A stretch of 64,000 bases of DNA from an uncultured Spirochaetota bacterium (GTDB lineage: Bacteria > Spirochaetota > UBA4802 > UBA5550): the NCBI GenBank assembly GCA_963827275.1, contig CAWHAA010000010.1, positions 432,189 through 496,188 of the forward strand. The letters run 5' to 3'. A model generated the notes under the pieces. It searched no databases and was not told the DNA's origin. It saw nothing but the letters and a program-made list of their open reading frames with translations. Each line of letters opens with the position of its first letter. Within the stretch, counting starts at the first letter, position 1. Shown one piece after another: positions 42,914-56,234 of the stretch. The translations under genes and the position numbers were made by a program.

Positions 42914-44397
42914 CTACCCGCTCCATTTCATGGAATCGGGTCTGCAGGACAATGATACTACAAGGCCCCAGGGCCGCACGGCTGACGGCGCCCCCGCCAG
43001 CGCGTCCATCATCGACCGCGCCTTTTCATAGATGCCGTCGAACCCGCCGTTTGACATTATCAGTATGATGTTCTCTTCGTCAAGGGAGATGTTATTTTCG
43101 ATGAACCCGAGCATCTCGTCGGCTCCCGGGAACAGGTGCGCGTCCCGGTTGAAGGCCCGTATGTCGTCAAGGAGCCTGGCCGGATCGAGCCTGCTGCCGC
43201 CCGGGACGGCAGAGCCCTCGTAGGGGGTCCGTATGAGGACGATGTCCGCCGGCTCGAACGAGCGCGGCAGCACGTCCTGGAACACGTTCCGCCGCGACGT
43301 GGCCGAGCGCGGCTCGTACAGCGCCCAGAGGCGCGCGCCGGGATAGCGGTCCCGCATGGTCCCGAGCACGTAGCGCACCGCGGTGGGATGGTGCGCGAAA
43401 TCCTCGTATATTTTGACATTGTTGCGATCGTAGATGAGCTCCTGCCTGCGCTTCACGCCGAGGAACGAGGCCATCCCCTTCGCGATGCCGGCCTCCGGCG
43501 CGCCCAGGAGCCGCGCCATGGCGGCCGCGGCAAGGACGTTCTCGTAGTTGAAGCCGCCGAAGAGCCGGGTCTTCAGGGAAAAGCCCCCCTGCGGGGAGGC
43601 GATATCCAGGGAGGAGAAATCACCCTCGTAGCCGCGGAACGAGTAGCTGAAATCGGCCGCCCCGCTCCCGTAGGAAAAACGCCGGGAATAGGATTTCGCC
43701 ACGATCTCATGGAGGTTCGTCGTAGTCGGCCGAATAGAGGAGCGTGCCGTCCGAGGGGACCATGTTCACGAGCCTCCTGAACCAGAGCTCGATCTCGGCC
43801 AGGTCGCGGTAGATGTCCGCGTGGTCGAACTCGAGGGAGGTGAGCAGCAGGTGCGCCGGCCGGTAAAAAACGAACTTCGGCACCTTCTCGAAAAAGGCGG
43901 AATCGTACTCATCCGCCTCTATGACGAAATACCGCCCCGTGCCGAGCCGGTAGCTGGCATCGTAATTCCTGGCGACGCCGCCCACGAAAAAGGAGGGCGA
44001 CATGCCCCGATTCCTCGAGGAGGTGCGCCAGCAGCGCCGTCGTGGTGCTCTTGCCGTGCGTGCCGGCGACCGCGACCACCTCTTTATCATGGAGGAAGAA
44101 GGCGTAGAGCGCCTGCGCCATCGACATATAGGGGAGCCGGGCGTTCAGCACGTGCTCCACCTCCGGGTTTCCCCTGCTGATGGCGTTCCCGACAATGACC
44201 AGGTCGGGGGAATCGATAGTGTCCGCGCTGAACCCCGTGCAGAGCCGCACGCCGCTCTTCCGGAGGACATCGCTCATCGGCGGATACATGTTCTGGTCGG
44301 AACCGGACACGGCGTACCCCCGCTCATGGAACATCGACGCGAGCGTGCCCATGGCGACGCCGCAGATGCCGATCATGTGGATCTTTTTCACCTTCAC
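42914..44397 (-). CDS. mpl: Murein peptide ligase (Mpl/MurC family), frameshifted
   Basis: IGICGVAMG, AGTHGKSTTT, EADEYDSAFFEK, EDFAHHPTA, MSNGGF over three ORFs. Confidence 0.85.
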
Positions 44398-44702
44398 TCG
44401 GCGCAGTAGCTCTCCTGTAGTATCTCGACCCGTACCAGCTCACGCCGGCCGTCCCTGACGACATAGGAGGCCTCGACCTTCTGGCATATCGCGACAGCGC
44501 CCCGGTCGGCCTCCCTGCCGTTGACCAGCACCTTTGACTCCCCGGTCCAGTAGAGGGTGTACTCCTTCGCTTTTTTCTTTATCTCGATCGACGTATCCGA
44601 CGCGCTGATGACCAGTCCGGCCACGGTCGAGGTCCCGGCCGCATACGCACCGACGATTCCCATCATAATAACGAGAAGACCCGCGCATATCACCTTTTTC
44701 AT
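44394..44702 (-). CDS. Small secreted protein
   Basis: Signal peptide MKKVIC...AYA; overlaps mpl start. Confidence 0.7.
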   Translation of the reverse strand: MKKVICAGLLVIMMGIVGAYAAGTSTVAGLVISASDTSIEIKKKAKEYTLYWTGESKVLVNGREADRGAVAICQKVEASYVVRDGRRELVRVEILQESYCAE

Positions 44703-44956
44703 TTTTCTCTACCCCCATGGATATGATAGAACCTTCGATAAAACAAAACTAATATACCGGCATAAATATTTCAAATAATTAATAAGAATAGACAGGGATG
44801 CAACAGCATGGGACCCGCACGTACAGAGCAGAGAATTCCCCGATAAAAAACAGGATACGGCTTAAACGCCCCATCCGCGGCGGGATTCGCTTAATTAATT
44901 GACAAAATACGGTCAACCGGGTATATTTGACGTAATAAAACAGTTCCATGCAGGCC

Positions 44957-45493
44957 ATGAAAAAGAAAATAACCTTCCACCGCTCCCTGTGCGCAATCGC
45001 CGTCATGGTGTTATGCATATCCCGTCTGGCCGCAGCTCCGGCGTACGAATGGGGGACCCCGCTCGACCAGCTGAAAAAATCGCTCCCCTCGGACAAGGAA
45101 GCGACGCAATTTACGCCAAAGGAAAAGCCGAAATACAAGAACAAGCTCCTGAGCTACATCACCGCGATCGACGGCAACCTGGTTGAAAAGATCATCATCG
45201 TGCGCCTGAAAGCCCGGCCCGTGGTCGATTACCTCTTCGTCAACAACAAGCTCTATACCATCATGGAAAACTGGGGCAAGGTGGACGAAAAGACCGCGAA
45301 GGAGATCGAGGCCAACCTGAACGGCCTGTACGGCCAGCCCCTGGTGCAGCAGGACAAGAACTTCTACATCTATTCATACAATACCGACAAGACCAAGGTG
45401 CTCTGCTATTTAATGAAGAACACCGACGGCACCTCCACCTGCAAGGTGTACTATTACACCAGGAAGCTCTTCAGGATGCTGATTACCGAGTAA
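44957..45493 (+). CDS. Secreted hypothetical protein
   Basis: Signal peptide; upstream TTGACA-N17-TATATT at 44899-44927. Confidence 0.75.
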   Translation: MKKKITFHRSLCAIAVMVLCISRLAAAPAYEWGTPLDQLKKSLPSDKEATQFTPKEKPKYKNKLLSYITAIDGNLVEKIIIVRLKARPVVDYLFVNNKLYTIMENWGKVDEKTAKEIEANLNGLYGQPLVQQDKNFYIYSYNTDKTKVLCYLMKNTDGTSTCKVYYYTRKLFRMLITE

Positions 45494-45518
45494 TACCCTG
45501 ACCCGGTTGCGGGTCGTG

Positions 45519-45886
45519 CAATTCATGGCGAGGGGAAGATGGCTCCTCGCCCTCTTCCCCTCGCGCTCCCCATCACCCACGGCCGCTCAAACGCCGCGGC
45601 GGGCTCGGGCATAACTCGGCCGAACCCGCTTCGCGGGATTCGGCCTCATACAACATGCCCGATTGGTTTGTCCGCCTGCGGCGGACGTTCGTATGGCTTT
45701 TGTGTGTTATAAATTATCCCCGGAAATCGTGTTGAGCAACCTAAAACCTTTCGCTCGGCGTCCCGTTCCGGGTCAGCCTCGCACCAATGATTTCATGTAT
45801 GACGCCGCACAGGATGTGCGGCGATGCGAGTGTGGCCCAGGATGTGCCCGACATGGATGTCGCAATGCCGGCTTCGCCATGAATTG
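45519..45886. mobile_element. MITE-like element with 13-bp perfect TIRs
   Basis: CAATTCATGGCGA ... TCGCCATGAATTG; no credible ORF; partial second copy at 47187. Confidence 0.75.
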
Positions 45887-45910
45887 TCGCTCCGGAGCAT
45901 ACCATGGGAA

Positions 45911-45950
45911 TAAAAAAGGGGGGCCTTCACGGAAAGGCTCCCCTTTTATT
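45911..45950 (-). terminator. Terminator after tRNA-Val
   Basis: GGGGAGCCTT...AAGGCCCCCC followed by TTTTTT. Confidence 0.75.
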
Positions 45951-45951
45951 G

Positions 45952-46024
45952 TGGGCGCTACTGGACTTGAACCAGTGACCCTCTGCTTGTAAGGCAGATG
46001 CTCTTCCAGCTGAGCTAAGCGCCC
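45952..46024 (-). tRNA. tRNA-Val(TAC)
   Basis: GGGCGCT acceptor stem, TCTGC-CTTACAA-GCAGA anticodon arm, TTCAAGT T-loop; CCA not encoded. Confidence 0.97.
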
Positions 46025-46026
46025 TG

Positions 46027-46299
46027 TTATTGTATCTTCGTCTCGGTGATCTTGCTTGCGCGGAACGCGATGGTGGTCTTGGCCGGAACGTCTATGTCCT
46101 TGCCCGCGATGGGCGAAAATACCTTTCTCGCTTTCTTGTCGGCCCGGTAAAAGGTGCCGAATCCCCGGATCTCGACCCTGTCTCCCTTCAGCGCGCTCTC
46201 TTTGACTTTTTCAATGAAATTATCGACGATATAGAGGACCTCTTTTTTCCGGAGTCCGCTCTGGAGGGTCAGGCGGTCCACTATTTCGGATTTCGTCAT
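46027..46299 (-). CDS. HU/IHF family DNA-binding protein
   Basis: MTKSEIV...VEIRGFGTF. Confidence 0.92.
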   Translation of the reverse strand: MTKSEIVDRLTLQSGLRKKEVLYIVDNFIEKVKESALKGDRVEIRGFGTFYRADKKARKVFSPIAGKDIDVPAKTTIAFRASKITETKIQ

Positions 46300-46310
46300 G
46301 CCGGGCGCTC

Positions 46311-46592
46311 TTACGCTTTGGCTTTCATCGCCGCGTTGACCCGCTTGGCCACCCGTGATTTTTTCCGCGCGGCGGTCTTCCTGTGCACCACGCCGGCGCC
46401 GGCGGCCTTGTCGATGGTCTTGACGAATTTGATGAACATCTTGTTCAGGGCCTCGGGGCTCTCCTTGCCGGCCGCGACCGCCTTTTCAACCTTCTTGGCG
46501 GTGGTGCGGATGGACGATTTGACCCCGACGTTGCGCTCACGCCGTTTCTCGTTCTGCTTGTTTCTCTTGATTTGTGACCGTATGTTTGCCAA
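46311..46592 (-). CDS. rpsT: 30S ribosomal protein S20
   Basis: MANIRSQIKRNKQNEKRR...HRKTAARKKSR. Confidence 0.97.
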   Translation of the reverse strand: MANIRSQIKRNKQNEKRRERNVGVKSSIRTTAKKVEKAVAAGKESPEALNKMFIKFVKTIDKAAGAGVVHRKTAARKKSRVAKRVNAAMKAKA

Positions 46593-46835
46593 TTGTTAAG
46601 TCCTTGTTTTAATGAATTTCTTCCGGCGTCCCGCCCGGCGGTGAGGGTTGACCGCCGGAATACGCGCCGGTTTCTAAAATATATACAATTAATATATATT
46701 GGATGGCAAATATGCGGTGGTGCATGGAAACTGTCAAGAATATTACAGAATTATTAATATCCTGTGGATATTAATTGACTCTCCCCACTCCGTGGGGCGG
46801 GGCGGCTGTCCGGGGATGCAAGATCAGTCAGTTAT

Positions 46836-47159
46836 TTAATATCCTATCTTTTTTCTGGGTTTTTCTTCTTCTATAATAAAACTCCTCAAAGCATCAAAAA
46901 TAGCCCTGAACTGCCGATCATACCTGTTTTCCATATCATCAATTTTATTTTTTAGCTCGTCATATGTTATCATCATCTGTCGCAACTTTGTAAAGGTACG
47001 CATTATTTGAATATTGACGTTAATTGCACGATCACTATTAAGAACACTGGATAGCATCAATATCCCATGCTCGGTGAATGCCATGGGAGCGTACCTGGAT
47101 CCACCCCGATTTGAGATCACAATTTGTGATCTCAAGTTTTGAAATTCTTCAAGGGTCAA
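46836..47159 (-). pseudogene. 5'-truncated ORF6N-domain protein
   Basis: LTLEEFQNLRSQIV...PMAFTEHGILMLSSVLNSDRAINVNIQIMRTF...KKIGY; usual N-terminal part absent. Confidence 0.8.
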
Positions 47160-47186
47160 CAGGTGTGGCCGGGAGTCCGGCCCGGA

Positions 47187-47370
47187 AATTCATGGCGAGG
47201 GGAAGAGGGCTCCTCGCCCTCTTCCCCTCGTGCTCCCCATCACCCCCGGTCCCTCATGCGCCGGGACGGGCTTCGGGCGTAACTCGTCGATTCGGCTTTG
47301 CCGAAATCGACTTCGAACAGACGCCCGATTGGTTTGTCCGCCTGCGGCGGACGTTTTTAGAGCTGGATGT
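47187..47370. repeat. Partial second copy of the 45519 MITE
   Basis: AATTCATGGCGAGGGGAAGA...GCCCGATTGGTTTGTCCGCCTGCGGCGGACGTT. Confidence 0.9.
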
Positions 47371-47473
47371 GTCACAGCAAACCTTGTTCTATTAGTAGTA
47401 GTCATGGAACTTATACCATATTTTTGCTTTTTTCCGGCTACAACAACCGGGATATGGAGCTAAAAGATATCTC

Positions 47474-47528
47474 AATATGGATTACATCAAAGAGATCGTT
47501 TTTGAGTCAGCATACTATTTCGTCAGTT
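47474..47528 (+). repeat. 55-bp direct repeat, left of the Nmad cassette
   Basis: 46/55 identical to 50978-51032; first 20 bp exact. Confidence 0.85.
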
Positions 47529-47618
47529 CGAGGAAAAGAGTGAAGGATGATTGACTTTATCATGGAGCCAGTTGAAGGCGGCGGTGCGGCAGCGGGTGTC
47601 CTGAATATTATTCATTAT

Positions 47619-48125
47619 CTATAATTTAGATCCAATCACTTTCAGCGATTCAGTAAAAAATTTATTTTGCTGTCCTGTAGATGGGAAGGGAATAACTATC
47701 CCGTTATTTAGCACATTAAAACCCTTACTTAACAACCTTTTCTCAAGCAAACGACATATATTTGCCTTTACAAGCATTATCTTCAACTGTTTGGGATCGC
47801 CAAGCTTTTTTAGATCAGCAACAAGATTCTCAAAATTCTCCAGAATCTTATCTTCTCGCTCTTTATCATTAAGCTTGTTGACTGGTTCATATGTTGCATC
47901 AACTATAAAATAACCGGAATCGGCAAAATAAGTTAGACCCTCTCGTTTACTCCGAAGATTGAAATTAAACAATTTCATCATTGCCTTAAATAACGGTTCA
48001 TTAACGCTTCCTTCTTCATCGTAGAAATATTTACCTGATTCTGGCGGAGATTCAAGAATAAAAATCATTTTTAATTTTTTCGGGCGATATTTGTTTCTAA
48101 GACGGTAATAGTATTGTTTATTCAT
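47619..48125 (-). CDS. Uracil-DNA-glycosylase-like protein
   Basis: IFILESPP..GKYFY and IPFPS resemble UDG-superfamily motifs. Confidence 0.55.
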   Translation of the reverse strand: MNKQYYYRLRNKYRPKKLKMIFILESPPESGKYFYDEEGSVNEPLFKAMMKLFNFNLRSKREGLTYFADSGYFIVDATYEPVNKLNDKEREDKILENFENLVADLKKLGDPKQLKIMLVKANICRLLEKRLLSKGFNVLNNGIVIPFPSTGQQNKFFTESLKVIGSKL

Positions 48126-48151
48126 TCTTGTGCAAGCTATTTACAATGATG

Positions 48152-48949
48152 TTATTGCATTAAAAGGTTTTGCACCCATTCAATTATCTTTTCGTTACAT
48201 TCGATTACAAATTCCTGCCCTTTCTTTGCCGAATCAAAATAATTATTCTTAAACGACTTTTTTGAATGATAAGATATTCTTACATCTTGAAAAATATCCG
48301 GCAAATCCCAATGGCTCTTTGTCTCACCTTCTTTGGTCAATATCAAGCGTTTATTATATTTCAAGCACCCGGATCCCGCCATGGGATCATCCAGACTCAA
48401 TACCTCAGATGCTTCATAGATGCAATTGTTCTTATCAATTGAATATTTATTGGCATGAGGATGATACATTGCCGAAGGAGGTATATCCGAGCAAGAGGAA
48501 TAGATATGACCTATTTGCATATAGGCATATACAATGTGTAAATCAGGCGCATTTTTTACATAACGTAAACTTTGATTTACAATTTCAGTCTCTTTAAACC
48601 ATCCGAAAAATAAAAATATATCCCCTTCTTGTACATTTTCATTTCTTAAATGTCCTTGTGCGCTTCCCATTTGGCCAAACAATGCCTTCCAGTACCCTTC
48701 CCTTTTTATTGCATCATGCCTGATGTCGGGATCAAGATGACATGTATGGCTGCTTTTAATTTTGGTATTTGGTTTTAGATCTTTAATTATCTCATAATAT
48801 GACTTATCTTGGTATGATAAATCTGAATACTTGATATACTCATTCTTGGAAGGTATGGGGAGTGATAGTAAGGTGCCATCAGGAAGTATGGGGCTTGGCT
48901 GACCGCCATAGCTTGAATCAAAACCTTTACGACTCAATATAACTTTCAT
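48152..48949 (-). CDS. Nucleotide modification associated domain 3 (Nmad3) protein
   Basis: ILSRKGFDSSYGG.PSPILPDG.LLSLPIP, HLDPD, GDIFLFFGWF, GQEFV. Confidence 0.85.
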   Translation of the reverse strand: MKVILSRKGFDSSYGGQPSPILPDGTLLSLPIPSKNEYIKYSDLSYQDKSYYEIIKDLKPNTKIKSSHTCHLDPDIRHDAIKREGYWKALFGQMGSAQGHLRNENVQEGDIFLFFGWFKETEIVNQSLRYVKNAPDLHIVYAYMQIGHIYSSCSDIPPSAMYHPHANKYSIDKNNCIYEASEVLSLDDPMAGSGCLKYNKRLILTKEGETKSHWDLPDIFQDVRISYHSKKSFKNNYFDSAKKGQEFVIECNEKIIEWVQNLLMQ

Positions 48950-49130
48950 CGCTTTTCCAGCTCAAATCATCTTTAAACCACGAATGAGGATGATTATATA
49001 GTCCCGGTTTATATTTTAATTCAATAAATGAAATAAATTTTTTTGTCGTTTCAGGATTATGAGTTCTTACTCCGTGACTGGATTGGCCCTTCGGAACTTC
49101 CGGCCTTACATTCTCGGGTATAACAAGAGG
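48927..49130 (-). pseudogene. Nmad2 C-terminal fragment
   Basis: Open frame PLVIPENVRPEVPKGQSSHG...PHSW...YIES* from the IS end, overlapping the Nmad3 start. Confidence 0.7.
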
Positions 49131-50351
49131 TGTTTAGTGATAGTATTCGCCTGACACATTCCTCTGAAAGACTTGATTTTCAGGCTACGCTATCCATCTC
49201 CATTGGTTCATTTTCTAACGGCCTTATACCTTCGACAAATGCCTGATATGGAGTCCGGCCATTCATATTGCGGCCTTGGTGGGACCTCTCATTGTTGTAA
49301 TGCTCAAGGTACTTGTCAAAGTCATTTTGCATTTCCTGAACCGACTCATAGAATTTAGTCCTACCAGCAATTCGGAAATGCTCATCAAGAAATGTTCGAT
49401 GCAGACGCTCAACATATCCATTACTCTGAGGCCTGCGGACCTTCGTTGTCCGATGCTCAATTTCTTCAAGCTGAAGAAACAGTTCAAACGGATGCTTATC
49501 AGGACGACCGCAGTATTCACGGCCATTGTCCGTCAGCACTGTTTCAACCTTAACATTGTGCTCTTCAAAGAACGGCAGCACATCATTGTTAAGCGTCTGA
49601 ACCGCAGTCACCGGAACCTTGGTCGTGTACATCCGTCCCCATGCATACCGGCTGTGGCAATCGATCACTGACTGGAGGTACACCCTGCCGATTCCCTTGA
49701 GCGTACCCACTAAAAACGTGTCCATTGCCACCAAATGGCCCGTAAAATCAGCCTGAATATGTCGTTCCCGGTATTCAGGGCTGAATTTCTCCAGAAGCCG
49801 AACCTGCTCTTCTGTGAGCTCAATCTGGCGTTTCCCGGTGATGCTCCTCAAGCCTCATTAAGCCTTTGGTGCCTGGTCTCAAGTTTGTTTCTTAACCATA
49901 CTCCTCGGACACCTCCGGAACTCACATTGACACCCTGCAAATTCAACTGCTGGGCTACGCTGAGGCATCCCTTCGTTGGATGCTTTAATGAATACTCCAG
50001 GATAGCTTTCTCAACATCCTCAGATACTCTATTCGGATGTGGACCTTTTGCCCCCGGTATTTTGTCTAAAAGTCCCTCTGCACCGTATGTCTGGAAATTC
50101 CTTCGGATCTCATAGAACTGCTGCCGGGAATATCCCATGATCAAACAGGCTTTGCTGACATTATCAAGTTCCTGGGCCAGCTCCAATAAATTTAGCTTTC
50201 TTCTGGCTGCCTTCTGTGTTACATTGGCATTGGTGGTCATTTGTTTCCTCCTGATATAAAGTTTTTGTGGTAAAAATCATTATATCTTTCAGAGGAACTT
50301 TGACCACCTTTATTTTTTAGGTGACTGTCAGGTGAATACCGTCACTGTACA
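49131..50351 (-). mobile_element. IS481-family element
   Basis: 26-bp imperfect TIRs TGTTTAGTGATAGTATTCGCCTGACA / TGTACAGTGACGGTATTCACCTGACA; no TSD seen. Confidence 0.9.
49180..50240 (-). CDS. IS481 transposase, split near 49850
   Basis: N-terminal HTH; MDTF, LTDNGREY, NGYVER (DDE). Confidence 0.88.
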
Positions 50352-50794
50352 TAATAATATCGATTGGAAATTAATACATATTTCCCGTTTACATCTTTTT
50401 CGTGATTCTCGGCAGTATGATAAAGATTTGGCAGCTGTTTGAAATCATTGGCGTTAGCCGGATGTTGAACAATAGGAATATATATATTATCTCCTATTCT
50501 CTTAAGAATATCATTCGAATCTTTCTGAGGTTTTCTATTTTTATATTCTGAATTTCGCCAATATTCTTCAAATGAGATTTTATTTGTAACCTGCATAAGA
50601 TAAACGAGCTTTTCTTGTCCTATTATATCATTATTCAATATTCCTGATGTGAATCCAGCTATCCAATCACCGATTTTTTTACATTCTCTTATTTTTGGCT
50701 TACATGTCGCCAATGTCATGAATCCGCCGAAGGGATTGGGTGCGAATCCGGCATCATGTGTCATCTTGTATGAAAATAATCTAATTTCGTCCAT
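50352..50794 (-). pseudogene. Nmad2 protein, N-terminal part, interrupted by IS481
   Basis: LFSYKMTHDAGFAPNPFGGFMTLATCKPKIR...GDWIAG...GDNIY. Confidence 0.85.
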
Positions 50795-50977
50795 AATAAA
50801 AACCGGAGGATAATGCATCAGGCATTACCACTACTCCTCCTCAATCTCACACGATTCCGATATTTCATCCAAATATTCCGGCTTTAGATACTTAATAAGT
50901 GATTTTGTTCTTTGAATTTCGTCTTTCAAAAATTTTATTTTTCAAGTGACTATCGGGCGGTTACGGTCACTATTTAT

Positions 50978-51032
50978 AATATGGATTACATCAAAGATAT
51001 TATTTTAGAATCAACACAATATTTCGTTAGTT
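50978..51032 (+). repeat. 55-bp direct repeat, right of the Nmad cassette
   Basis: Matches 47474-47528. Confidence 0.85.
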
Positions 51033-51112
51033 AGAGTGATCCCACCCCTTAAATTTGTACCACGAGATAGTTTAGTTTTAACCGATAAATAATCAAGACT
51101 AATGAGGTTAAA

Positions 51113-52251
51113 ATGAAAAAACGATTCTCAGAAGAGCAGATTGTCAGAATCATTGGGGAACATAAGGCGGGAAAAAAGGTAAAGGATATCGCCCGAGAAC
51201 ACGGCATTAGTGAGAACTCCTTTTATATCTGGAAACGCAAATATGGAGATATGAGCTCTCAGGAAATTGTTCGATTGCGACTACTTGAAGATGAAAATAC
51301 ACGATTAAAGAAACTGGTTGCCGATTTATCCCTGGATAACATGGCACAGAAGGAGATCATAAAAAAGTTCTGCGACCCGGAGTGAAGAGAGAGGCAGTAA
51401 GCTATCTGGTGAGTAGCTTCGGGTTTTCGATACGACGATCATGTAAGGTTTCCTGTATGGCTCGTTCTACATTCTCATACAGTCCGCAGCCAAATGATGA
51501 CGCACGAATCATTGGAGAGATAGATTCGATCCTTTCAAAAAATTCAAAATATGGCTGCGGAATGATACAGCTCAAGCTGCGGCAAAAAGGGATTCTGATT
51601 AATCATAAGCGTACAGAAAGGATATATAAAGAGCATGGGCTGCAATTACGAGCGCGGAAACGTCGGAAAAAGATAGCTTCATTAGAACGATCACCCGTTG
51701 AATTGCCGAATGAACCTGGCGTCATATGGGCTTTAGATTTCATTCATGACTCGGTGGGCTTTAAAAAGAATCTCAAAATACTGACAGCCATTGACCCTGT
51801 AACGAATCATTCGCCACTTATTCATACTGGATTTTCAATAACGGGTAAGGATGTTTCTGAACTACTTGAAAGAGCATGTGAATCCTTTGGGTATCCAGAA
51901 TTTATACAATGTGACAATGGGCCTGAATTTAGAAGCCAGGAACTCGACCGTTGGTGCTATGAAAAGGGGATTAAAATAATTTTCACAAGGCCCGGCAAGC
52001 CATCAGATAATTGCCATATAGAAAGTTTTAATGGAACATTTCGGAATGAATGTCTCAATGCTCATTATTTTAAAAAACTGAGTACAGCCAGAGAGATTAT
52101 TCATGAATGGTGGAGAGAATATAACGAGGAGAGACCTCAAAAGAGATTAAAAGGGATGACGCCCAAACAATATTATGATATGTTAGTGATCGAGAAAACT
52201 AAACTTGAAACTGGTCGAATTGTGGGGTCAAACAATATTATGATATGTTAG
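51113..52251 (+). CDS. IS3 transposase OrfA/OrfB with programmed -1 frameshift
   Basis: OrfA HTH; A_AAA_AAG at 51361-51367; OrfB WALDF, CDNGPEF, IESFNG. Confidence 0.92.
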
Positions 52252-52293
52252 TGATCGAGAAAACTAAACTTGAAACTGGTCGAATTGTGGGGT
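52164..52293 (+). repeat. Exact 65-bp tandem duplication in the IS3 right end
   Basis: 52164-52228 identical to 52229-52293. Confidence 0.9.
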
Positions 52294-52325
52294 AGGATCA
52301 AGAGTATTGAAAAAGCGAATATTAC

Positions 52326-53648
52326 GAGACTGTCAGATATTTTGTGTAAATAGCCGTTGATCACAGCGGAACCCTGTCACCAAAAAATACGGCAAACTGG
52401 TTCATTGCAGCTCCCCACTCCCTGATTGGCATAGTCCATTTCTTTTCGGCCCTCGTCAATGCCAAATATAGGATTTTATAAATTGCTTCGTCCGTTGGGA
52501 ACGCAGACCTTTTCTGAGTGACCTTCCTAAGACTTGAATTAAGTGATTCAATGGCATTGGTCGTATATATTGCCCTGCGGATATCGTCCGGATACGCAAA
52601 AAATTCATTGAGGTTTTCCCAATTAGCACGCCATGATTTTGAGATCATCGGATATCTGGCATCCCATTTTTTACCGAATTGATCAAGCGCATCCTGCCCC
52701 GCCTTTTCAGACGGCGCGGAATATATGCTTTTCAGATCCGCACAGATCTGCTTACGCTCTTTCCATGATACATATTTTGTGGAATTTCGTATCATATGCA
52801 CAATGCACAGTTGAATTCTGGTCTGCGGGAATACTGTATTGACTGCATCAGGAAACCCCTTGAGCCCATCCATGCAGGCAATGAAAATATCTTCAACGCC
52901 GCGATTTTTAAGTTCATTGACGACCTGGAGCCAGAATTTTGCACCCTCAGACTCGGCCATCCATAACCCCAGGACCTCTTTTTTCCCTGTTATATTGATC
53001 CCTATGACGGTGTAGACCGATTTATTGGCGACTTTCCCATCAGTTCGACCTTTTACCACAATCGCGTCAAGATATACAATAGGATATACCGGATCAAGAG
53101 GACGTGACTGCCATTCGAGAACATCTTTGATTATCTCGTTTGTGACCGTACTGATCAATTCAGGGGAAACCTCTACGCCATAGATATCTTCAAGATGACC
53201 CTGGATATCCCTTGTCGTCATTCCCAATGCGTACATCGATATGATTTTCTCATCGAACAGATCGAATCGTTTCTGATGCTTTTTGATAATCCGGGGTTCA
53301 AATTCGGCGTTGCGGTCTCGAGGAACTTCAATTTCAACTTCGCCGTTGTTTGTTAATACTTTCTTTGAACTTTTACCGTTACGGACATTACCGGGTTTGT
53401 CAGCCGATCTTTCGTTTTTCTCATAACCAAGATGATCGGTCATTTCGGCATTCATCGCCGTTTCAATGATTTTCTTGGTTAACTGCTGAATAAGACCGTT
53501 CTTCCCGGTAACCTGTTCGGGGGTCAGTTTCTTGAAATCTACGTCTTTGAGTAATTCCTTGATAATTTCATCTTTGTCCATAGCCATATCATGCTCCTTG
53601 TATATTAAATATTGATATAGCTATTTACACAAATCTTTTTACAGTCTC
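52326..53648 (-). mobile_element. IS256-family element
   Basis: 29-bp TIRs GAGACTGT...TTTGTGTAAATAGC; no TSD. Confidence 0.92.
52361..53587 (-). CDS. IS256 (Mutator) transposase
   Basis: VPRDRNAEFEP, YLDAI, DGLKGF, QLCIVH, TTNAIES. Confidence 0.95.
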   Translation of the reverse strand: MAMDKDEIIKELLKDVDFKKLTPEQVTGKNGLIQQLTKKIIETAMNAEMTDHLGYEKNERSADKPGNVRNGKSSKKVLTNNGEVEIEVPRDRNAEFEPRIIKKHQKRFDLFDEKIISMYALGMTTRDIQGHLEDIYGVEVSPELISTVTNEIIKDVLEWQSRPLDPVYPIVYLDAIVVKGRTDGKVANKSVYTVIGINITGKKEVLGLWMAESEGAKFWLQVVNELKNRGVEDIFIACMDGLKGFPDAVNTVFPQTRIQLCIVHMIRNSTKYVSWKERKQICADLKSIYSAPSEKAGQDALDQFGKKWDARYPMISKSWRANWENLNEFFAYPDDIRRAIYTTNAIESLNSSLRKVTQKRSAFPTDEAIYKILYLALTRAEKKWTMPIREWGAAMNQFAVFFGDRVPL

Positions 53649-54073
53649 TATGTGACCGACACCACAAGCATTGACGCATCCTATTATTACCAGCATAGCT
53701 TCTTTGGATATCCGGAAGACCGATATGATCTTCATCGGCAGGATCGGAAGCGTACTCCGACGTCTGGGACTATGTATCGATTTACGGGGGGATTAACCTC
53801 GGCTTCGACTCTGACAAGTACCTGATTGCAGGAGGAGACCTGGGGATAACATTTAATATTTTTGGCTACGTGACGCTTTCCGTTACATATATGCCGGGAT
53901 ATTACAAATTTACCAGGACGTATAGTTCCCTTGACCGGTTCATTGGATCATATGTCTACTATTTTATGGATAGTAGCCTGGTAAGCTCCGACAATCCGTA
54001 TTTCCAATCGTCCCAGGCAGGAAAATCATTCATGAATCACAGTGTCAGTTTCATCATTGCATATAAATACTGA
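53649..54073 (+). pseudogene. 3' fragment of an outer-membrane beta-barrel-like gene
   Basis: Coding-like from the IS end; ends HSVSFIIAYKY with terminal aromatic; internal frameshifts. Confidence 0.5.
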
Positions 54074-54112
54074 CCCCTCGACCCGACACCCGGACCCGTG
54101 CCTGCCGGCCGT

Positions 54113-55265
54113 TTACCTTCCCCTTCTCATCTGCTGGTTCATATTGGTCCTTGAGTTCCTGCGCATTTCATTCATCTGAATCTTGTTCTCTTCCATTCTC
54201 AGGCGCATGCGCTCCCTGTCCAGGTCCTCACGGGCATTTCGTTTCTCGGTCCTGTCATCCCTGAAATGTTCGCCCGTGGCGCGATGGTTTCCCCCGACGA
54301 CATCGCCGCTGCCGAGCTCCTTCCTCGCCCTGACCTTGCCGTCAACCGGGATTCCACGTATGTCCGGAAGAAGGAGGTGCGCATACCGGCCGCCGCGCAA
54401 TCCTTCCGCGTCGTCGAATAGCTTCAGGTCATCAGTTGAAGCGGGAATTTCCTAATTGAATCAGATATGACACACTTGCGGCCCGCCCTCACCTCACGGC
54501 TTTCCCCGGTTTTTCCAAGAATGACACGTATCGCTCCCTCTTTCAGCGGTACGAGCGTCGCGCCGCCCCCGGCCTGGAGCAGGAATTCCGTTCCCAGGGG
54601 CACTATTCGCGCATCGGGGGTCCGGTACTGATATGAGACGGATGTCGTTCCGGCAGGTATGGCTGAAATAAGCATGCCGTCACTGAGGGAAAACCCGAGC
54701 TTAATATTCGAACTTTTGTCAATGAGCAGGGAGTCAGGGATGCATTCGTTTTCCCTATAAGGGTAATGTGTGTCATTGTGCCGGGAACGAGACGCGCTGC
54801 CGCACCGTCTGCCACCACAATCCTGCTTGCGTCATATACCGCTTCGCGCTGCATCATCGTATTCCCGTTCACCGCAACACCGGGACCGAGCGGGAGCAAC
54901 ACCATTGAGGCGCGTGTTGGCCCCTGCGGACCCTTGATCACGATCGCCACGATCACCACTATCATCGCGGCGGCTGCAAGGGCCGATGCGACCGTCAGTC
55001 TTTGCCGGCTTCCGGACAGGGAACGCATGCCGTCAGCCGCATCTCCGCTGCGTATTTCCCTCCATGAATGCAGGATCCTCTCCCATACCTCTCTACCCGG
55101 CTCAATTGACCCATGGCGGGGAGCCATAATCTTTACCATTCGCTCATACCGTGCGCGGCATGAAGCACATTCCTGGATATGTTTTTTTACCCGTTCGACA
55201 ACCCGTTGGCCCGCGGTATCCGCGATATATGAAGAAAGATTTTTATTTGTCACATGTATCTTCAC
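54113..55265 (-). CDS. Anti-sigma factor (zf-HC2 plus FecR-like domain), frameshifted
   Basis: HIQECASC, one TM, LGTEF...EGAIRV; follows ECF sigma. Confidence 0.65.
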
Positions 55266-55285
55266 GGTACACCAACCCTACTCAT

Positions 55286-55843
55286 TTATATAACGATTTT
55301 TATCAGGATTAAGGCCATAAAAAACAGAAATAAAAGCTTAAAACCCGATTTTTCGAGTGAATCCGCCAGGTATTCAATCATGGCACGCATCTTTCTTTTT
55401 ACTGTCCGCTCCGATATCCCCAGATTTTTAGCAATCTCTTCATATGGAAGAGAAAGCTCATTCCTCATTAGATATACCGATCTCGAAACAGGATCTTTTT
55501 CATCAACCAGCCTGTCGACATATTGTCTCAATTCCTTATACTCAACACCTTCCTGATCGTCACGAGCACCGGCATATTCGATATTTTCCTCAAGCCGTGA
55601 TTCCTGCTTTTTACGGTTTTTTCGCGAATCGTCGATGCAGAGATTTCGCGCGGTTTTATAGAGAAAAGCACGGATGTTCCTTTCATCGAGAGAATAGTCC
55701 CGGGAATACTTAATTAGCTTCACAAACGCGTCATGGAGGATATCCTCGGCCGTCTCTCTGACCCGGACAAAACCGTATATATACGAGAAGAGCTCCCTCG
55801 CATATTTCTCGTAGATGTCTTTTAATAAACGTTCGTCAGTCAT
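55286..55843 (-). CDS. ECF sigma-70 factor
   Basis: AEDILHDAF, FLYKTARN, YEEIAKNLGISERTVKR. Confidence 0.92.
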   Translation of the reverse strand: MTDERLLKDIYEKYARELFSYIYGFVRVRETAEDILHDAFVKLIKYSRDYSLDERNIRAFLYKTARNLCIDDSRKNRKKQESRLEENIEYAGARDDQEGVEYKELRQYVDRLVDEKDPVSRSVYLMRNELSLPYEEIAKNLGISERTVKRKMRAMIEYLADSLEKSGFKLLFLFFMALILIKIVI

Positions 55844-55871
55844 ATCCGTGTCACAGATTGGACGTCACACG

Positions 55872-56234
55872 CTATTTCACCAGTATCATCTTCAGGGAGA
55901 CGACAAGCAGCACTAGGCCGAACATCCTCTCGAGAACAATATCGGATACATGGTGTGCCAGTTTGGCGCCGAACAAACATCCCGCCAGGAACCCGACGCA
56001 TATGAACAGGGCCGCCGTGAGGTCAACATGTCCCTGCCGGTAATAGGTCCATGCCGCGAGAATTCCTATCGGCGGGACCATCAGGGCCAGGGTGGTCCCC
56101 TGTGCCTGGTGCTGGGAAAACCCGAAAATAAATATCAGAGCGGGAATGATTATGATACCGCCGCCGATGCCGATCAATCCGCTCAGCATTCCCGCCACGA
56201 GGCCAAGGAGAATAAATAACGCTATAGTTGTCAT
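55872..56234 (-). CDS. Half-size TauE/SafE (TSUP) permease
   Basis: GLIGIGGGIIIIPAL, QHQAQGTTL. Confidence 0.87.
   Translation of the reverse strand: MTTIALFILLGLVAGMLSGLIGIGGGIIIIPALIFIFGFSQHQAQGTTLALMVPPIGILAAWTYYRQGHVDLTAALFICVGFLAGCLFGAKLAHHVSDIVLERMFGLVLLVVSLKMILVK

Follow-up and report, generated by a model that had tools for sequence, protein, structure and literature searches.

An Nmad2-Nmad3 pair with a disrupted Nmad2 next to a predicted UDG-fold gene in an AT-rich, insertion-sequence-rich islet of an uncultured Spirochaetota bacterium

Organization of the locus

We considered three adjacent genes at positions 47619–50794 of a 64,000-nucleotide stretch (the window) of contig CAWHAA010000010.1, assembly GCA_963827275.1, from an uncultured Spirochaetota bacterium. 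The original prediction, made from the sequence alone, had described them as an operon of Nmad2, Nmad3 and a gene resembling uracil-DNA glycosylases (UDG), here called G3, and as a candidate defence system against phages with modified bases. As it had proposed, the genes are co-oriented, all on the minus strand, their boundaries hold as drawn, and they are AT-rich, with the GC content of 33–36% (0.333 in G3, 0.357 in Nmad3 and 0.333 in the N-terminal part of Nmad2) as compared with 58% (0.58) in positions 1–44000 of the window. Two of the three are intact: Nmad3 (48152..48949) encodes a protein of 265 amino acids (aa), and G3 (47619..48125; 168 aa) starts 26 bp past the Nmad3 stop codon, which is the predicted spacing. 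Nmad2 is split by an insertion sequence (IS) of the IS481 family.

Disruption of Nmad2

The 5' part of Nmad2 is contained in the open reading frame (ORF) 50342..50818 of the minus strand. Its likely start codon is ATG at 50794, coinciding with the predicted end of the operon and giving the N-terminus found in relatives, MDEIRLFSYKMTHD. The ORF matches PF18753 with E 1e-46 and 159.5 bits (gathering cut-off 26.1), covering only positions 3–143 of the 200 in the profile, and ends with VLISNRYYY, followed by the IS481-family element (49131..50351, minus strand, 1,221 bp). On the other side of the element lies a 3' remnant (48927..49130, in the frame 48927..49133 of the same strand) that begins with PLVIPENVRPE; taken alone, it has no Pfam match, and in an alignment with intact Nmad2 relatives it corresponds to their last 60 residues. 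Judged by its sequence, Nmad2 at this locus is a member of the family by descent, and the gene is not intact. The overlap of the Nmad2 stop with the Nmad3 start, claimed originally, does exist and amounts to 23 nt (stop codon TAA at 48927–48929, Nmad3 ATG at 48947–48949), but it belongs to the 3' remnant of the split gene.

The element is bounded by imperfect inverted repeats of 26 nt (49131–49156 and 50326–50351) and is present in a single copy in the 4.13-Mb assembly. Contigs of four public sequencing runs contain related copies with loose ends exactly at 49131 and 50351, thus fixing the ends of the element. Its transposase is encoded in two frames, the ORF 49848..50240 corresponding to positions 2–111 of the NF033577 model and the ORF 49180..49854, to positions 111–284, with the scores of 65.8 and 180.3 bits, respectively, each below the cut-off of 224 bits. 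In three of the runs the related copies are shorter by one letter near 49828 and by another near 49860, and since these differences would bring the two frames in register, the transposase in the window looks frameshifted rather than subject to programmed frameshifting.

At the junction, the motif YYYFGxxP of the relatives is replaced by YYY, the element and PLVIP, so that approximately 13 nt of Nmad2 are missing; no target-site duplication is visible in the junction sequence or in the alignment with the relatives. Even if the IS were excised, the gene would be out of frame; Nmad2 is a pseudogene and not merely interrupted.

Nmad3 and the Nmad2-Nmad3 pair

The Nmad domains were reportedly named by Iyer et al. 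in NAR in 2013. The original prediction had noted that Nmad2 and Nmad3 lack biochemical characterization; in agreement with that, we found none in print, the searches by domain names yielding the DefensePredictor supplement and unrelated uses. The Pfam check it had called for upheld both assignments: in addition to the above match of Nmad2, Nmad3 matches PF18754 with E 2.5e-72 and 243.9 bits (gathering cut-off 27) over positions 1–246 of 247, being a full-length member of the family. The genome contains one Nmad3 and one Nmad2 only.

The structural model of Nmad3 is confident (predicted local distance difference test, pLDDT, 90.7) and presents a predicted PUA-like beta-barrel of the EVE/YTH/ASCH type with insertions. 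A Foldseek search with this model yielded no match at E<=0.001. The weak rows are mainly PUA-like proteins, including (Foldseek values in brackets) THYN1 with DNA containing 5-methylcytosine (6.6), the modification-dependent nuclease VcaM4I (6.6), YTH domains (about 6), the ASCH protein 5GUQ from Z. mobilis (6.1) and McrB N-domains (6.0 and 5.2). A weak likeness to PUA-like modified-base readers attached to restriction enzymes (the McrB N-domain, VcaM4I and EVE/ASCH/YTH) is seen at the level of the predicted fold. It is plausible, judging from the model, that Nmad3 resembles such readers, which fits the modified-base theme.

To characterize the context of Nmad3, we collected 94 loci: one from the phylum of the window, one sub-threshold hit, 79 metagenomic loci drawn from the best 80 of 496 confirmed ones, and 13 viral contigs. 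An Nmad3 ORF is present in 93 of the 94; two loci, L117 and L152, are the same contig. Where at least 650 bp of upstream DNA are available, Nmad2 lies directly upstream and ends at most 120 bp from the Nmad3 start in 23 of 75 loci. Among the closest relatives (L071–L081), a separate Nmad2 ORF is directly upstream in all ten besides L075, where the two genes are fused into a single protein of 522 aa. The conserved unit is the Nmad2-Nmad3 pair, and the genes downstream of Nmad3 vary between the loci. Restriction- or defence-type genes are immediate neighbours in at least 15 Nmad3 loci (L072, L074, L086, L110, L111, L113, L115, L124, L125, L135, L136, L145, L154, L155, L156), and recombinases or transposases, in six further ones (L106, L117/L152, L127, L133, L147, L151).

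Nmad3 scores above the Pfam cut-off in two of 401 genomes of the phylum, including the genome considered here, and the other 14 genomes from the genus yield no such score; this rarity points to a foreign origin of the gene. The difference in the GC content between Nmad3 and its flanks is small (median −0.014, n = 54). Overall, there are more than 5,000 Nmad3 homologues. No match was found by tblastn in 50,697 phage records. Plasmids contributed six records with 34–40% identity; one of the two contexts examined has HNH and dcm genes nearby, the other, ArdC and a metallophosphoesterase, and neither has a glycosylase annotation. The complex prediction for a natural intact Nmad2-Nmad3 pair (L071) gave a score of 0.00, which counts neither for nor against an interaction.

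Several observations concern variants of this arrangement. Four loci (L084, L085, L087, L100) lack Nmad2, and Nmad3 is directly followed by an ORF of 110–112 aa without a Pfam match, which in three of them (L085, L087, L100) is followed by an ORF of 411–460 aa; Nmad3 with the short ORF is possibly another Nmad3-based module. Elsewhere Nmad3 itself is longer, 400–450 aa, due to an extension of approximately 130–190 residues without a Pfam match, C-terminal in L117/L152, L122, L126, L129 and L157 and N-terminal in L158. Homology between Nmad2 and Nmad3 is not supported: the hhalign probability for the two profiles is 1.1%, although VLISxxFYYFG and GDIFLFFGWF align locally.

The G3 family and its predicted fold

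G3 has no match in Pfam, even at E 10, or in NCBIfam, PADLOC and the sequences of the Protein Data Bank (PDB). In particular, neither phmmer nor the profile of the G3 family retrieved UDG chains from the PDB sequences, and PF03167 gave no match up to E 10. A check against defence databases, suggested originally, was negative, as none of the three genes is represented by a PADLOC model: PADLOC-DB v2.0.0, a library from 2023 that predates the systems Brig1–3 and DS-4 discussed below, contains no family matching the Nmad2 pieces, Nmad3, G3 or the G3 paralogue at E<=0.01. As with Nmad3, a tblastn search with G3 in the 50,697 phage records found no match.

There are 369 G3 homologues at E<=0.001, with no Pfam domain in any of those listed. 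The family is tight, the mean column identity being 54%, and its invariant positions include E25, S26, P27, P28, Y33, F34, Y35, E43, Y79, N83, K120, N122, C124, F147, P148 and Q153. Four motifs, E25-S-P-P, T78-Y-x-P-x-N83, K120-x-N-x-C124 and F147-P-S-x-G-x-Q153, follow the four beta-strands of the AlphaFold (AF2) model (residues 20–24, 72–76, 115–118 and the bridge 136–137). In UDG structures, the catalytic and base-reading loops are situated after these strands.

The resemblance to UDGs that had been noted for the third gene is borne out at the level of the predicted fold. The AF2 model is of high quality (pLDDT 93.6, predicted template modelling score 0.90), its alpha/beta fold with a sheet of four parallel strands can be superposed, for the greater part of its length, on UDGs of known structure, and the top Foldseek rows listed for it are chains of the UDG superfamily, except two (an esterase and SRP54). 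The best match, SMUG1 (E 8.7e-4), is the only one at E<=0.001. In the ESM Atlas, 24% of a nearby cluster (score 0.93) are PF03167 members. Hence G3 has a predicted UDG-superfamily fold, whereas at the sequence level it does not match PF03167. Sequence identity with Family 2 UDGs (MUG of E. coli, human TDG) and with SMUG1 is 10–13%; the first motif of Family 2 is G-I-N-P-G, as opposed to E-S-P-P in G3.

One more protein was considered in this respect. In a viral contig, an Nmad2-Nmad3 pair is followed, 190 bp downstream, by a gene for a DUF1643 protein (L153:6002-6553). DUF1643 may be UDG-like, but a link of this protein to G3 was confirmed neither by hhalign with the G3 profile (probability 0.2%) nor by phmmer, which found nothing in the PDB sequences.

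G3 occurs apart from the Nmad genes

Two peptide patterns scanned over 185,579 species genomes yielded 66 G3 loci. In none of the 66 did tblastn find Nmad2 or Nmad3 within 6 kb of G3, and, reciprocally, none of the 93 Nmad3 loci contains an ORF of the G3 family (profile search, E<=1e-3). The trio thus fails as a conserved system, and lack of conservation is an observation that the original prediction had itself named as speaking against the proposed system. Nor do we find a linkage of the Brig3-BapA type, that is, of a glycosylase gene with a base-processing gene.

The relatives of G3 closest to the window point in the same direction. The public runs each hold at most a tenth of the sampled words, and four were aligned to the window at 90% likeness. 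In two of them, the bioreactor metagenomes X1 and X2, G3 is present at approximately 94% identity, and the left flank of the window is common to both as well. One X2 contig (record 16; 4,405 letters) matches positions 47714–48126 with 24 differences in 413 letters, and from 48126, immediately preceding the ATG of G3, approximately 3.96 kb are unlike the window at this likeness level, a strongly diverged Nmad3 being possible. Another X2 contig joins the 3' end of G3 to the left flank (47400–47484), with 647 letters replacing 96 in the window. The nearest copy of G3 in the public runs, therefore, has the left flank and the gene in common with the window and a different Nmad3 side. The four runs provide no cover of positions 48144–49011 and 50376–50871, parts of Nmad3 and Nmad2, which we do not count as absence; from these alignments, our argument draws solely on the X2 contig that diverges from the window.

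The gene is compositionally foreign, AT-rich as compared to the flanks, in most loci. The GC content of G3 minus that of the flanks has a median of −0.11 and is below −0.05 in 35 of 46 loci; for the third codon positions, compared with the neighbouring ORFs, the median is −0.117, with 26 of 47 loci below −0.10 and 13 of 47 above −0.05.

The genome also has a second copy of G3, a paralogue on contig C5 (G000:C5:294009-294509; L165:7010-7522, plus strand) encoding 170 aa with 68% identity, and there is no Nmad gene there. It resides in an island with 26–40% GC (L165:3288-10357). On one side are genes of a C5-cytosine methylase (Dcm), an EcoRII-C-like nuclease, Vsr and a NOV_C-domain protein. On the other side is a defence-associated reverse transcriptase (DRT) of the RT_UG5-nitrilase type in four ORFs (130, 296, 132 and 340 aa), covering positions 20–131, 134–402, 532–597 (in the related RT_UG5_small model) and 622–898 of the 907 in the model. 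The fragmented DRT is followed by an IS3 copy similar to that in the window.

The 123 immediate neighbours of G3 in the 66 loci are diverse and mostly housekeeping genes. Only nine of them, in eight loci, match PADLOC at E<=1e-10, and for two, a methyltransferase and RelA/SpoT, the match seems generic. The neighbourhood hence does not back a defence role for G3, and one may ask whether G3 could be an ordinary repair glycosylase, acting on uracil or mismatches similarly to MUG/TDG, and only by chance adjacent to an Nmad pair that handles, for example, modified nucleotides or RNA. Consistent with this are the neighbours themselves (Rnf, methylmalonyl-CoA mutase, CTP synthase, AMP-binding ligases, RelA/SpoT), the rarity of PADLOC matches among them, and the best structural matches of G3, which are repair enzymes. 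In six related alphaproteobacterial loci the gene directly upstream encodes an AMP-binding ligase, complete in L035, L038, L039, L041 and L064 and reduced to a C-terminal fragment of 77 aa in L059. Moreover, the paralogue on C5 adjoins a Dcm-Vsr system, where a glycosylase acting on G:T or G:U pairs makes sense. Against it stand the foreign composition of G3 in most loci, the location of both copies of this genome in AT-rich islands that also contain defence genes or what remains of them, and the patchiness of the family, with 66 loci recovered from the genomes scanned; we consider a purely repair function of G3 unlikely.

The surrounding islet

The neighbourhood was described originally as an IS-rich island about 1.6 kb from a tRNA, and so it is. 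The tRNA-Val (TAC) gene (45951..46024, minus strand) marks the edge of the low-GC islet, 1,595 bp from G3, and is the only feature found by an Rfam scan of positions 44000–56000. On the Nmad2 side, in addition to the IS481-family element, there are an IS3-family element (orfA/orfB at 51113..52251, left end at 51037) and, after it, an IS256-family transposase (52361..53587). At the left end of the IS3 element, metagenomic contigs have loose ends in the runs X1, X2 and X3. The absence of a modifying enzyme from the cassette, stated originally, agrees with our scans of the cassette and its surroundings by Pfam, PADLOC and NCBIfam, which found neither such an enzyme nor an integrase. A scan for promoters and terminators in positions 47300–51150 gave counts at the chance level, and no terminator on the minus strand.

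Between the tRNA and the cassette lies a truncated ORF6N gene (46836..47159, minus strand), matching PF10543 at positions 48–86 of 86 and the PADLOC family PDC-S05 with E 1.7e-28 at positions 61–174 of 177. It is a further decayed candidate defence gene in the islet. Given the Nmad2 pseudogene, the transposase split in two frames and one letter longer than the related copies near 49828 and near 49860, this truncated neighbour and the density of IS elements, the whole islet could be dead cargo, with Nmad3 and G3 likewise unexpressed or non-functional. This seems very improbable to us: the frames of Nmad3 and G3 are full-length and retain every family-invariant residue (by construction of the alignments).

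A direct repeat of approximately 60 bp, with two copies in the genome, is located at 47474..47535 and 50978..51036 (plus strand), the right copy extending up to the IS3 element. Each copy opens a short frame, starting with MDYIKEI in one and MDYIKDI in the other, and several of the differences fall on third codon positions; the repeat may represent the beginnings of paralogous genes or else scars of recombination. In the runs X1 and X2, the likeness to the window is lost at 47484, which is 11 bases inside the left copy. Farther away, a Mur-ligase gene (42914-44397, minus strand) is represented by two ORFs with a gap, 43909..44397 with the N-terminal domain and the start of the middle one and 42914..43702 with the C-terminal domain, which may reflect a frameshift, an error of assembly or disruption of the gene.

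Comparison with known systems

Three anti-phage glycosylases of the UDG superfamily, Brig1, Brig2 and Brig3, have been demonstrated experimentally (PMC11078745; 10.1101/2025.10.29.685425; 10.64898/2026.02.25.707755). Brig2 is UDG-like and acts on phages with modified thymidine, and its homologues are found in AT-rich, mobile contexts (Getz et al., 10.1101/2025.10.29.685425). Similarly to Brig1 and Brig2, G3 is a solitary, horizontally spread gene with a very divergent sequence and a predicted UDG fold, AT-rich relative to its surroundings, as reported for the Brig2 homologues. In contrast to them, its neighbours are mostly housekeeping genes; the comparison with Brig1 and Brig2 is made at the level of the predicted fold. 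The lack of sequence or profile matches to PDB chains and Pfam UDG models means that G3 is not a close relative of the Brig proteins.

Brig3 excises 5-hydroxymethylcytosine (5hmC), and the overlapping gene bapA (GenBank PX942695) encodes an ASCH-like hydrolase with two beta-barrels that strips glucose from glucosyl-5hmC DNA, thus widening the range of Brig3 (10.64898/2026.02.25.707755). The locus considered here resembles this operon in that a predicted UDG-superfamily glycosylase stands beside a beta-barrel, ASCH-like protein that would act on a flipped modified base, the genes being tightly packed in a defence island. It differs in the reversed gene order, in having two Nmad genes versus one BapA, and in the pairing not being conserved. 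By analogy, a partnership similar to Brig3-BapA at this locus is possible but unsupported.

For Nmad2, the closest precedent is DS-4, a validated five-gene defence system from E. coli comprising a thymidylate-synthase-like protein, a deoxynucleoside monophosphate kinase, a 5-hydroxymethyldeoxyuridine DNA kinase, an NDT/TIR-like protein and Nmad2 (PMC13092281, Table S8). As listed there, DS-4 shares Nmad2 with the window and has no Nmad3, while its four other enzyme genes are absent from the window. The same study includes Nmad2 among predicted novel defence domains; "Nmad3" and "PF18754" occur zero times in the supplements searched, and the predicted systems in its Figure 6F include NMAD and UDG, the examples of Nmad2 and of UDG coming, according to the tables, from different assemblies. 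The modified-base theme of the original prediction remains plausible in view of the PUA-like model of Nmad3, the Brig enzymes and Nmad2 in DS-4; the idea of three genes acting as one system is not supported.

Two modules or one system

The three genes probably became neighbours recently, in an arrangement since disabled, and do not represent a conserved three-gene system. On balance, we lean towards reading the locus as two separately mobile modules, the Nmad2-Nmad3 pair and a solitary G3, stacked in a decayed, IS-ridden islet. Several points weigh against this interpretation. The co-oriented genes, 26 bp apart, have no terminator-like site between them (a weak test) and the same low GC content. 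The direct repeat, approximately 80% identical and present only twice in the genome, exactly brackets the three genes, so the trio may have moved, or been fixed, together. An Nmad3 homologue, P0122 (78%), and a G3 homologue, P0023 (64%), each list 45,652 bp as the longest contig, and could represent a second instance of the linkage. That a UDG-superfamily glycosylase can work together with an ASCH-like enzyme is demonstrated by Brig3-BapA (10.64898/2026.02.25.707755). Finally, the immediate neighbours of G3 that match PADLOC are confined to the eight loci mentioned above.

Most of these points would suit a true three-gene defence that first unmasks and then excises, Nmad2-Nmad3 reading or stripping a hypermodification and G3 excising the exposed base, with the system inactivated here by the IS: the tight co-oriented spacing, the bracketing repeats and the contig that P0122 and P0023 may have in common are all in its favour. 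However, neither the 66 G3 loci nor the 93 Nmad3 loci contain the trio, the nearest copy of G3 loses likeness to the window at the start codon, with approximately 3.96 kb of dissimilar DNA upstream, no Nmad gene accompanies the other G3 copy of this genome, and most Nmad2-Nmad3 pairs are followed by unrelated genes. In addition, the preprint names no family for BapA, and homology of Nmad3 to it is hypothetical. We thus regard a three-gene system as improbable.

Under the two-module interpretation, each module is likely, by prediction, aimed at modified bases in invading phage DNA. Nmad3, obligately dependent on its partner Nmad2 within this subfamily, would accommodate a flipped modified base in its PUA-like pocket and read or process it, and G3 would excise a base as a monofunctional glycosylase. 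A hand-over between the two modules, if any, would be local, recent and by now disabled. In a bolder variant, which appears quite doubtful, G3 would represent a new family of solitary mobile antiviral glycosylases of the UDG superfamily, and Nmad3 with Nmad2 would be BapA-like, the two having recently combined to form an "unmask then excise" system, which the IS then killed.

The locus itself is of less value: the first gene is dead, and the three genes do not make up a conserved system. Of most use are the leads of a general kind, namely, the hypothesis on the PUA-like Nmad3 and an unnamed, compositionally foreign family with a UDG fold. Nmad2 and Nmad3 are widespread, and, since the ASCH-like beta-barrel of BapA de-modifies phage DNA, the predicted PUA-like fold of Nmad3 yields a concrete hypothesis of reading or processing of a flipped modified base. 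G3, in turn, matches no model in the family libraries scanned, is AT-rich relative to its flanks in most genomes, and has two copies in AT-rich islands of this genome, which makes it a candidate amenable to testing, either as one more stand-alone glycosylase of defence or as a new family of repair UDGs.

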